DNA from: Octopus sinensis
Taxonomy: Eukaryota
Direction of reading: 5' to 3'
DNA length: 64,000 bases
Assembly: GCF_006345805.1 (NCBI RefSeq)
Contig: NC_043005.1
Span: 106,330,001-106,394,000, forward strand
The notes beneath the pieces were generated by a model, which was not told where the DNA came from, did not search any database, and worked only from the letters and a program-made list of their open reading frames with translations. The position numbers were made by a program, and so were the translations under genes. Below, piece by piece: positions 4,457 through 29,909 of the stretch (position 1 is its first letter; the number at the start of each line of letters is the position of its first letter).

Positions 4457-4805
4457 ATAGCAACAATGCATACCATCAAACAACCACTATATTAACAGCA
4501 ACTGCTACCACAACTCTCACATGACTACCAACAACAACAACAATCACTATAGCAACGACATACACCTCCACCACCACCACCACCACCAAAATAACAATAT
4601 ATATTATCAACCAATGTACCACAACTACTATACCCAATAGTAACAGCTGTAACTAGCGCTACCAACTATAACCACAACTGCAGCGGTCATACAGCCACCC
4701 CCAGCTACCACACAACCGTATCCAAACTTACCACCCCAACGCTTCCAACCACTCCACAATAACCGCACAACTACAACCAACACACACCACTGAAGGCAAT
4801 ATCAA

Positions 4806-17732: not shown

Positions 17733-18692
17733 TGAAATGAAAGAGTTGAGGAAAGAACGGAAAAGAAGAAATAATGATGCATAAGATTTACTGGGAATAA
17801 TGAAGGAGAGTGAAGGAGTGAGATTGCATGAGTGAAGAAGTAAAGGAATGATTTTTCAAGTGTACAATAGGTAATTGCGAGTCAAACAGAACAAGGAATT
17901 TCCAGTCACAGAGAAATTGCTCCAACTTCAAACTGAAGAGAGAATATAAAGATTATCACAAGAAGTCAATGATTGATGTGCGTTGGAGACAGGGAAGAAC
18001 TAAAGCAAAAGCAATATCAATAAACAAAAGCAAACAGTAGCCAGGGTCAAAGTAAAAAGAATAGGAATGACTGAAAGAAGGCAAAATAAAAGGGGCCAAC
18101 CTTGAAGCAGAAATATTTAAAGGTGAAATAAGCCAGTCACTTTTACCACATATGCACATATACATAAACTCACACACATATACATATATACATATACATA
18201 CACGTACACTCAGACGCACTCACATACACGTTTCCTTGTGGTGTCATCTATCACGTTAGCTTGTCTTATGCTCCAGCAGCTTATGTTGATGACACTGCCA
18301 ACTTGAACAATAGGAATTGTCGGAAGGTGTTGAAATTGTGATGATGTTTGGTTGACAATTGATCAGGAACTGAGCATGTCTGCATCTGTTGGGTGTGTTC
18401 CTTTCCTGTTTTTCCATATGTTCATTTGCTGTCTCCTGTGCAACATTTTTTCAATACATACATACATAATGTGTGTGTATATATATATATATATATATAC
18501 ATACAGCAAGAGAAGACTATATATATACACTCACATATATGTATGTATGTATTAAAAAATGTGTATTAAAATATACATATATATATATATATACATACAT
18601 ATATATATAAATTAATAAATAAATAAAACATATGCATATATACATACATATATGTACGTACCTACCTCTACATGTATATATACATGCATATA

Positions 18693-19237
18693 TGGGTACA
18701 GGACACCAAAAAAACGTCGAACACAATGAGAAACGAAAACATAAACACAAAACCAAGGAAATGGACATTTTTTTAAAACAACGAAAAAATAGAGTACAGG
18801 ACATACAAAACAAGGAAAATTCCCTTTCTTCAGTTGCCTTTATTTCATCTACTCCAAGTTTTGAAGGTCAAGGCGATACATGACTTCAATGAAATTTTCC
18901 TTCCTGCGAAAATCAAATTAAATGAAATTTGAGATTTTTTTGCGGAGGGGTAAAAATGGTAACAAAAACAGGACAGTAACGACAGTACAAAAAATAAACA
19001 GTAAAAGACAGGACAGGGAAAATAACAGTAACTGTCGTTACTGTCCTCTTTTTGTTACCATTTTTACCCCTCCGCAAAAAAATCTCAAATTTCATTTAAT
19101 TTGATTTTCGCGGGAAGGAAAATTTCATTGAAGTCATGTATCGCCTTGACCTTCGAAACTTGGAGTAGATGAAATTAAGGCAACTGAAGAAAGGGAATTT
19201 TCCTTGTTTTGTATGTCCTGTACTCTATTTTTTCGTT
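18693..19237. mobile_element. TA-adjacent element with 207-bp inverted arms (18780-18986 and 19031-19237)
   Basis: Arms are near-perfect reverse complements around a 44-nt loop; terminus tgggtacaggac resembles 29451. Confidence 0.75.
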
Positions 19238-28722: not shown

Positions 28723-29319
28723 TTGGAAGGTAAGATAACTGAGATGCTGGTGTATTAGTTTAATGAAAGAGATATGATATAAAGTCATATTTTTATACAT
28801 TTAAAATATTTTAGTACCATTGTATAAATTTATGCTGTATAAGACAAATAAGTATAATTATATACTATGAACAATATACAGTGTTATAGTAGAATCTCTT
28901 AAATTAGGTCTATAGCAAACATACATTGGCTTTAAACATATAATTATATTTCAATGCACCATTAAAAATTTCTAATCATATCATGCTGAGTTGTATTCAA
29001 TATAATTATTTTTAAAAGTTAATCAGAAGATGCTAAACAATGCTCATGAGCCTTCCAATTTGTGCAAGAATGGTAAGATTGCTAGTTAAACACAAGCAAA
29101 CACACACACACACACACATACTGAGCGATGTATACACCTGCACTTCAAGAAGAATTCATTGTAAATTAGCACCACAAGTCTGTTGTTTTTAACAAATAAA
29201 ATAGCTTAGAATTCCCTTGCTTGAAATATACATTTATTCCTCTAATGTAGAACCATGCACTGATTTCTTTGGCTGTATCAAGTTAGCCATATAAGATGCT
29301 GCTGCTGCTGCTGCTGCTG

Positions 29320-29393
<74 letters not shown>

Positions 29394-29449
29394 GTTGCTG
29401 GTGCTGCTGCTGCTGCTGCCGTATATATATATATATATATGCATGCATA

Positions 29450-29909
29450 TATGGATACAGGACGTCACCAACTGTCTAAACAACATGAAATACGAAAACA
29501 AACGAGTTAAATACGTAAAAAAACGAGAGAAAAAATGGAAAACAGGACAAGTAAATACAGTTTACTTCACCAGTCGTCAGCTGTCTATCTGCCCCTCATT
29601 TCGAGCATTCAACGACAATATGAGTCTTCAAAGACAGCTACTTCCATAAATTCCAGAATAAAATTTAGGATTTATGGAGGGTCAAAGTTGGGAACAAAAA
29701 CAGAACAGTGGAAACATACAAAGAAAGTTAACAAAAACAAACATGGAGGGTTGTTAGACCAGAATGAGAGGAGCATAGTGAATGCTGGGAGAAATATTTT
29801 CTTTGAAAAGAGAAAAGATAGAAGAGAGAGAAAGAAAACGTCCGGTCCTTTGAACGTCCGTGCAGGAATAGAAAGATGGACGATGGTCACGTTTGAGCAA
29901 CGAGAGACA
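29450..29909. mobile_element. TA-adjacent element, diverged homologue of the 18693 element
   Basis: Terminus tggatacaggac; colinear motifs ttcaccag, tttcga, cttcaa, ggagggt.aaa and aacaaaaacag. Confidence 0.55.

Follow-up and report, generated by a model that had tools for sequence, protein, structure and literature searches.

This locus raises the question of what kind of RNA is shared by the segment 19121-19195 and a second element at 29567-29639 of the window, which is the whole stretch of 64,000 nt of DNA that was analysed. The initial annotation had noticed hammerhead-like core motifs beside crossing helices in both elements, and had proposed either a non-canonical or switchable hammerhead or a new structured RNA motif. 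In this study, we believed that the segment is probably a mutated copy of a type-SGC hammerhead in a high-copy non-coding Penelope-like retroelement, and that intact copies give rise to an RNA predicted to self-cleave just 5' of stem I. Judged by its sequence, the element would be a known rare kind (type-SGC) with a new variant fold in a new host context, and not a new RNA class.

Order of the core blocks and parts of the motif

The host genome (2.7 Gb) was scanned with the core pattern CGAAA-N4-5-GAGTAGA-N12-20-CTGANGA, and the same pattern reversed was used as the control. The pattern was met at 4602 places (2245 forward and 2357 reverse) and the reversed control at 0, and the first 100 matches contained at least 10 different versions of the variable segments. 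Seventy pattern places (30 loci and 40 others) were fetched and parsed into 119 distinct instances. In the sense RNA of at least 10 subfamilies, the core consists of C3-A9 (CUGANGA), G12-A14 with A15.1, U16.1, and H17, which is A or C. These nucleotides lie in three blocks, S (16.x-U-H17-1.x), G (11.x-GAAA-15.x) and C (2.x-CUGANGA-10.x), which follow each other from 5' to 3' in the order S-G-C (Site-GAAA-CUGANGA), and stems I, II, and III all cross. The motif is carried by three retroelement families, A, B, and C. The third block reads CUGAUGA in the majority of families B and C and CUGAAGA in family A, with C-GAAA in all, and the similarity-fetched majorities of families B and C keep CGAAA and CUGAUGA at a column frequency of 0.9 or higher. 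The exact core pattern was present in 26/30, 9/30, and 10/30 loci of families A, B, and C, respectively, which fits the ages of the families.

Stem I, with 6-7 bp where copies are intact, joins the nucleotides just 5' of CUGANGA to a stretch lying upstream of CGAAA; stem III joins the 5-6 nt before the triplet that precedes stem I to the 5-6 nt after GAAA, with A-U as the first pair; and stem II joins CUUC or GCUC before GAAA to GGGG or GGGU, one nucleotide past CUGANGA. Among the 119 instances, stem I had at least 5 contiguous bp in 85, stem III had at least 5 bp outward from A15.1-U16.1 in 64, and stem II had 4 bp, preceded by one extra nucleotide, in 75. The triplet directly before stem I was ATA, GTA, GTC, or ATC in 79 of them (29, 25, 17, and 8, respectively), and the instances without these triplets were mostly 5'-truncated or mutated copies where the parse fails. 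All stem and triplet features occurred jointly in 56 instances, in which the linker from stem I to stem II measured 1 nt (11 instances), 2 nt (6), 3 nt (14), 5 nt (8), or 6 nt (17). In the right arm of an inverted repeat in the window, the parts of the motif are as follows (all on the plus strand).

19121-19128, plus: S1a, 5' strand of the peripheral helix S1 (aatttcat), read from the sequence
19129-19133, plus: internal loop between S1 and stem III, conserved 5' strand UGAAG (alignment columns 34-38)
19134-19139, plus: stem III 5' strand, 16.6-16.1, with U16.1 at 19139 (4/6 pairs change on both sides)
19140, plus: H17 (A), with the predicted cleavage between 19140 and 19141 (triplet counts, 119 instances)
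19141-19147, plus: stem I 5' strand, 1.1-1.7, UCGCCUU (5/7 pairs change on both sides)
19148-19150, plus: linker from stem I to stem II, 3 nt
19151-19154, plus: stem II strand 11.4-11.1, CUUC (alignment helix 3)
19155-19158, plus: core G12, A13, A14, and A15.1 (sequence and alignment)
19159-19163, plus: stem III 3' strand, 15.2-15.6
19164-19168, plus: internal loop 3' strand AGUAG, which includes the GUA once taken for the cleavage site
19169-19176, plus: S1b, 3' strand of the peripheral helix S1 (atgaaatt), read from the sequence
19177-19183, plus: stem I 3' strand, 2.7-2.1
19184-19190, plus: core C3, U4, G5, A6, A7, G8, and A9 (CUGAAGA)
19192-19195, plus: stem II strand 10.1-10.4, preceded by one extra A at 19191

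The pieces named in the initial annotation are all in place: CGAAA at 19154-19158, GTA at 19165-19167, and CTGAAGA at 19184-19190, as well as the helices aatttcat 19121-19128/atgaaatt 19169-19176 and gcctt 19143-19147/aaggc 19177-19181. The second element likewise holds agctgtct 29579-29586/agacagct 29632-29639, gtcgt 29573/acgac 29612, and CGAAA-N8-AGAT-N13-CTGGTGA; these features lie on the minus strand, so the homologous strands had been compared correctly. The idea of a non-canonical hammerhead survives in the unusual order of the core and in the crossing, covarying helices, but the drawing itself was wrong. It had taken GAAA before CUGANGA for the type II order, whereas the real order is S-G-C and there is no stem I hairpin between GUA 19167 and CUGAAGA. 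The 2-3 bp stem III read from GAAA-CU-ugg-AG-UA does not covary, and the covarying stem III is 19134-19139 with 19158-19163. Cleavage had been placed after GUA 19167, which belongs to the internal loop, and the predicted site follows A19140. The stem I that could not be drawn is the crossing 5-bp helix itself, and the 8-bp helix, although present, is peripheral (S1) and joined to stem III via the GAAG/AGUA internal loop.

The segment 19121-19195 sits within the right arm of a 207-nt inverted repeat (left arm 18780-18986, right arm 19031-19237, 44 nt apart), whose arms are 98% complementary. The copies in the window and their surroundings are the following.

18451-18600, no strand: TA/TACA-rich microsatellite (low-complexity repeat family D1), flanking the 3' end of copy A
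18601-19032, minus: family-A non-coding retroelement copy, 5'-truncated, whose sense is the minus strand of the window
18601-18695, minus: conserved TA-rich terminal region, the 3' end of this family-A copy
18813-18909, minus: left-arm putative type-SGC motif, mirror of 19108-19204 (x' = 38017 - x)
18877/18876, minus: predicted cleavage site of the left arm
19031-19237, plus: inverted, truncated second family-A copy (the right arm), whose sense is the plus strand of the window
19071-19114, plus: hairpin H1 upstream of the motif in the right arm (z -2.4 vs shuffles)
29454-29905, minus: family-B retroelement copy (copy B) found by oriented alignment, whose sense is the minus strand of the window
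29567-29639, minus: putative type-SGC hammerhead motif of family B, decayed
29619/29618, minus: predicted cleavage site of copy B
29643-29678, minus: hairpin H1 of copy B (z -2.5 vs shuffles)

The right arm departs from the family majority at 19160 in stem III (T vs G), at 19182 in stem I (A vs G, which leaves a C.A mismatch with 19142 and costs one stem I pair), and at 19192 in stem II (A vs G). The left arm has these changes plus a G12 to A change at 18862 (CAAAA instead of CGAAA). In copy B, A6 is changed to G (CUGGUGA at 29567-29573, minus strand), a 6-nt deletion removes the stem II strand 10.x, and the internal loop is also mutated. With such core or stem mutations, the right arm, the left arm, and copy B are likely to be inactive relics. 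The hairpins seen beside both elements in the initial annotation are real and fold better than shuffled sequences, with folding energies of -13.5 kcal/mol for 19066-19120 (plus strand, z -2.4) and -10.9 kcal/mol for 29640-29684 (minus strand, z -2.5). The sequence of H1 differs between the families and the hairpin is retained. The 3' end of copy B adjoins (TA)n and repeats of the form (CTG)n(CTA)n, and a long compound microsatellite of trinucleotides, (CTG)n(CTA)n(CTG)n, occupies 29299-29420 next to the (TA)n tract.

Covariation of the stems and likeness to published hammerheads

An alignment of 29 sequences (26 genomic copies and 3 window copies) with 17 pairs was used to evaluate the stems. 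The 26 genomic rows, with at most 2 per stem-sequence combination, came from the 57/119 instances that passed the intact-stem filters. Paired cells made up 88.6% of these preselected rows vs 76.3% in shuffles, and the U16.1-A15.1 pair (columns 44-65) was U-A in 29/29 rows, all selected for U16.1. The pairing percentage and the invariance of the core are inflated because the rows were preselected for intact stems and an exact core, and the informative evidence is only the compensatory changes and the slid controls. Doubly changed cells numbered 89, vs 32.8 +/- 5.4 in shuffles, and 0 of 500 shuffles reached 89. Changes on both sides were found in 10/17 pairs overall, that is, in 4/6 pairs of stem III, 5/7 of stem I, and 1/4 of stem II. 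The slid controls were 44-56% paired, with a covariation score of 0.10-0.17 vs 0.49 observed. The versions of stem III were CAUGU/ACGUG, CUCAU/AUGAG, CGUAU/AUACG, UACGU/ACGUA, CGCGU/ACGCG, and CGUGU/ACACG, and those of stem I were UCGCCUU/AAGGCGA, UUGUCG/CGACAA, UUGUUG/CAACAA, UCGCU/AGCGA, and UUGUCCC/GGGACAA. The covariation is strong in stems I and III and weak in stem II, which has 4 bp only, two of them G.U pairs. The covariation and core conservation proposed in the initial annotation were borne out by these changes and by the cores kept in the majorities of families B and C.

At gathering scores, Rfam reported no hammerhead or other ribozyme family in the whole window. The comparison with its hammerhead models that the initial annotation suggested gave no match at E <= 10 in the two window elements, and there was none at E <= 1 in the full units L017, L028, L033, and L035 or in the Penelope-like loci. 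What did match were hairpin models of the microRNA type, on the inverted repeat and on the TA repeats. No hammerhead match was to be expected, because covariance models cannot represent the S-G-C strand order. The cyclic order C-G-S with a nested three-way junction, as in types I, II, and III, was not found here: the order is S-G-C with crossing stems, and it is beyond the reach of circular permutation of types I-III. A type I fold whose core would be the UUGAAGA that follows S1a was also drawn and rejected; its U4 is not conserved (UCGAAG and ACGAAG in other families) and it has no stem II hairpin.

Studies have shown that such an order exists. Eckert, Friedrich, Weinberg & Weinberg (NAR 2023, PMC10085705) described the type-SGC hammerhead, comprising the HRIMA-1 motif and its variants. 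According to that paper, these ribozymes were supported by covariation, came from metatranscriptome contigs that also carry hairpin ribozymes, cleaved in vitro, in cis, at the site predicted by analogy, and had about 3 nt linking stem I to stem II; the accessions in its supplement are all from IMG/M except one bacterial RefSeq record. The S-G-C order that had looked like a possible new motif in the initial annotation is therefore the permutation already published as type-SGC (PMC10085705). Compared with that report, our element has the same block order Site-GAAA-CUGANGA with a complete core and three mutually crossing stems, a similarly short linker between stems I and II (here 1-6 nt), a single extra nucleotide separating A9 from stem II, and a strand lying between blocks G and C that joins a fourth helix. 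In the published fold, the fourth helix is formed by a strand 5' of stem I (2.x side) and a strand 3' of stem II, and encloses block C; unlike this, the fourth-helix strand here has its partner on the 5' side of the Site block, and the helix prolongs stem III by way of the GAAG/AGUA loop. It is on account of this difference that we call the element a variant of type-SGC. The context differs as well: in contrast to the metagenome and metatranscriptome contigs of the published examples, which were located through hairpin ribozymes, there are here thousands of genomic retroelement copies, in a large eukaryotic genome with EN+ Penelope-like elements. Full-text literature searches returned no type-SGC ribozyme in animal genomes or retroelements, and the literature searched on hammerheads, retrozymes, and Penelope held no such permuted ribozyme; papers beyond the searched literature are possible in both cases.

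A non-circular permutation of an RNA fold has been documented once so far, in 2023, in environmental sequences of unknown hosts. If our reading is true, the type-SGC permutation gains a host and a genetic setting, together with a plausible function, namely the processing of retroelement transcripts. The copies would also offer a wealth of natural stem variants to structural studies of how cross-stem connections are tolerated, and the finding would mean that order-dependent tools (Rfam models and classic hammerhead descriptors) miss such ribozymes. Retroelement lineages described as without hammerheads would become checkable for permuted ones.

Helix S1 and the competing explanations

S1b pairs with the strand 5' of block S, and S1 prolongs stem III via the conserved purine-rich loop UGAAG/AGUAG (GAAG/AGUA). 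The versions of S1 include AAUUUCAU/AUGAAAUU, GUUUCAU/AUGAAAC, CUGUCU/AGACAG, and CUGUUUU/AAAACAG. Its longest complementary run averaged 6.5 in 64 copies vs 5.2 in cross-family pairings; the control separates only modestly because the S1 sequences are related across families, and the covariation of S1 is modest. A 3' partner for S1b as in the published type-SGC fold was looked for, and this yielded nothing but wobble-rich runs in a U-rich tract. We also considered the GAAG/AGUA loop as a K-turn, which was ruled out by its strand asymmetry.

Only 0-3 nt lie between S1b and the stem I strand. Because S1b abuts stem I in this way, S1 would be hard to reconcile sterically with a hammerhead formed by one molecule, and from its geometry it seems incompatible with a hammerhead folded in cis. 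The conflict may be relieved by an opening of S1, by a bend in the loop, or by another unit whose C block completes S and G. Eckert et al. point to a similar, unsolved problem of distance for some of their own ribozymes (PMC10085705).

One alternative is that the hammerhead is active only between two units, either two molecules or tandem copies, with the CUGANGA block of one unit docking on the Site and GAAA blocks of another, and that the monomer is protected from cleavage. By geometry, the arm of S1, loop, and stem III, with about 19 stacked layers, would put CUGANGA far from its own site, and tandem units are common. Small hammerheads of Penelope-like elements reportedly cleave as dimers (Lunse et al. 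2017). The reasoning is purely geometric, however, S1 may open or bend at the internal loop, and the published type-SGC ribozymes cleave in cis (PMC10085705), and we give this explanation a minor chance.

It is also conceivable, though unlikely, that the element is a structured non-catalytic RNA of the retroelement, for example a structure for recognition or priming by reverse transcriptase, in which the hammerhead-like nucleotides are kept for another reason or are the relic of an ancestral ribozyme. This would agree with the steric clash of S1, with the stable nested arm of S1, loop, and stem III that was recovered by free-energy folding of copy B, and with the conservation of the GAAG/AGUA loop, which we presume to resemble protein-binding loop motifs. 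What it leaves unexplained is that 11 invariant core positions, U16.1, and a non-G H17 are kept in subfamilies with fully diverged stems, and that all three stems stand directly beside the core blocks, as the hammerhead fold demands; a binding structure has no need of CUGANGA and GAAA at helix ends. A chance likeness within a low-complexity repeat that has no selected structure is very improbable: this genome is rich in simple repeats and its A/U-rich segments pair easily, with many wobble-rich spurious runs, but the 4602 matches of the core pattern, where its reversed control has 0, the compensatory changes in 10/17 pairs, and a doubly changed count that no shuffle reaches speak against it.

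In the type-SGC hammerhead that we favour, the cut would fall between H17 and 1.1, at the sites listed above (19140/19141 on the plus strand, 18877/18876 and 29619/29618 on the minus strand). Tandem or read-through transcripts would be cut to RNAs of unit length that carry 5'-OH and 2',3'-cyclic phosphate ends, and these RNAs, possibly circularised, may template a Penelope-like reverse transcriptase, as proposed for retrozymes. S1 may act as a switch in this process, or the ribozyme may assemble between two units. Contigs from 4/24 sequencing runs, whose RNA nature is a guess, bridge the predicted site, and little or no contig from the same runs of uncertain kind covers about 18844-18891; both observations are uninformative either way.

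Retroelement families carrying the motif

First-look candidates numbered 3441 genome-wide for family A (43 matches among those listed; 40 scored, 95-97% identity), 4464 genome-wide for family B (identity about 84-88%), and 3868 for family C, which was first met as a stray copy next to a family-A locus. In oriented loci, the three families have a common layout, with a constant 3' end against (TA)n and variable 5' truncation; in family A this was seen in 30 loci. The constant end of families A-C reads ...GUCCUGU-R-CCCA-Y-AUAUGCAU and is followed by (TA)n. The constant end and the variable truncation define the sense strand, which is the minus strand for 18601-19032 and 29454-29905 and the plus strand for 19031-19237. 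No long open frame was found in the family copies. We had also considered that family B might be a MITE bounded by terminal inverted repeats; this impression came from loci aligned in mixed orientation, and the oriented alignments show a 3'-anchored, 5'-truncated element.

Head-to-tail tandems were found at loci L017 and L028, and 5 same-strand pairs of the core pattern, 592-879 nt apart, were present among the first 100 pattern places. Adjacent inverted truncated copies were found in the window, L004, and L016, and the inverted right-arm copy of the window is absent from most other family-A copies. The (TA)n also terminates other copies of family A, and the microsatellite at 18451-18600 is likely to be the insertion target of copy A. 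About 45 extra conserved bases past the usual 3' terminus and before (TA)n were found at L008, L010, L016, and L017, and not at window positions 18601-18640; by analogy, they resemble the optional tail of Penelope-like insertions. The unit length here was about 590-880 nt, and metazoan retrozyme units are shorter.

Studies have shown that type I hammerheads occur in Penelope-like elements and metazoan retrozymes (Cervera & de la Pena 2014, 2020). The likeness to these lies in a hammerhead near the 3' region of a Penelope-type or non-autonomous retroelement with tandem units, and in multimeric transcripts that are presumed to be processed. The type I ribozyme described there is the canonical circular permutation CGS with a very short stem III, whereas the permutation here is non-circular and stem III has 5-6 bp. 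For the Naiad and Chlamys groups of Penelope-like elements, Craig et al. 2021 (PMC8557442) describe (TA)n insertion bias, 5' truncation, partial tandems, inverted 5'-truncated copies, and an optional 30-40-bp tail. Families A-C present the same picture (5' truncation, partial tandems, an adjacent inverted truncated copy, a microsatellite target, and an optional short tail), and by this analogy they show the habits of a putative non-autonomous retroelement with Penelope-like insertion. The same source describes Naiad/Chlamys elements as without a canonical hammerhead, and some elements as carrying hammerhead core strings that fit no stem/loop descriptor (PMC8557442). We would only tentatively suggest that type-SGC ribozymes are the 'missing' ribozymes of Penelope-type elements thought to be without hammerheads, and that S1 forces intermolecular action, so that only tandem or multimeric transcripts are cut to circularisable RNAs of unit length, as in a copy-number sensor based on a knotted ribozyme topology.

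For the coding elements, at least 5029 first-look GIY-YIG candidates were present in the genome, with 147 matches among the 150 scored. L097 (1165-3264, minus strand of the locus) has an intact frame that encodes a reverse-transcriptase motif and, C-terminal to it, a GIY-YIG domain, and L098 and L107 are also coding Penelope-like loci. The sampled autonomous elements here have C-terminal GIY-YIG, unlike the Naiads, in which it is N-terminal. Of the at least 5029 candidates, 30 were fetched; the 3' end of families A-C was not found on the 5 coding Penelope-like loci that were read, which have a different 3' sequence and likewise end in (TA)n, so a protein-coding partner was not found among these 5 loci, in contrast to Naiad/Chlamys. 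At 2/30 GIY-YIG loci (L102 and L112), a family-D copy in the same orientation lies downstream; it is not the 3' end of the coding element, and the two are separate insertions into one (TA)n tract.

A type-I-like, hammerhead-shaped motif was observed near the 3' end of coding Penelope-like elements in 16/30 loci (L091-L120), on the sense strand about 0.7-1.5 kb downstream of the GIY-YIG match (e.g. L098 near 2347-2420); Rfam gave it no score at E <= 1 in these loci. It has UUGAUAA in place of CUGAUGA, where positions 3 and 8 are both changed and would keep the 3-8 pair, and continues with a GGUUC...GAACC stem II, GAAAC, and a palindromic ACAUGU. Beside family-A copies at L002 (about 2140-2330) and L023, there is what we take to be a tRNA-like SINE with box A/B-like strings, unrelated to the ribozyme motif. 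Palindromic, E-box-like strings similar to CACGTGAC were seen repeatedly near the 5' region in all three families, A, B, and C (window about 29880-29890 on the minus strand, L017, L028, and the majority lines of families B and C), and could belong to an internal promoter.
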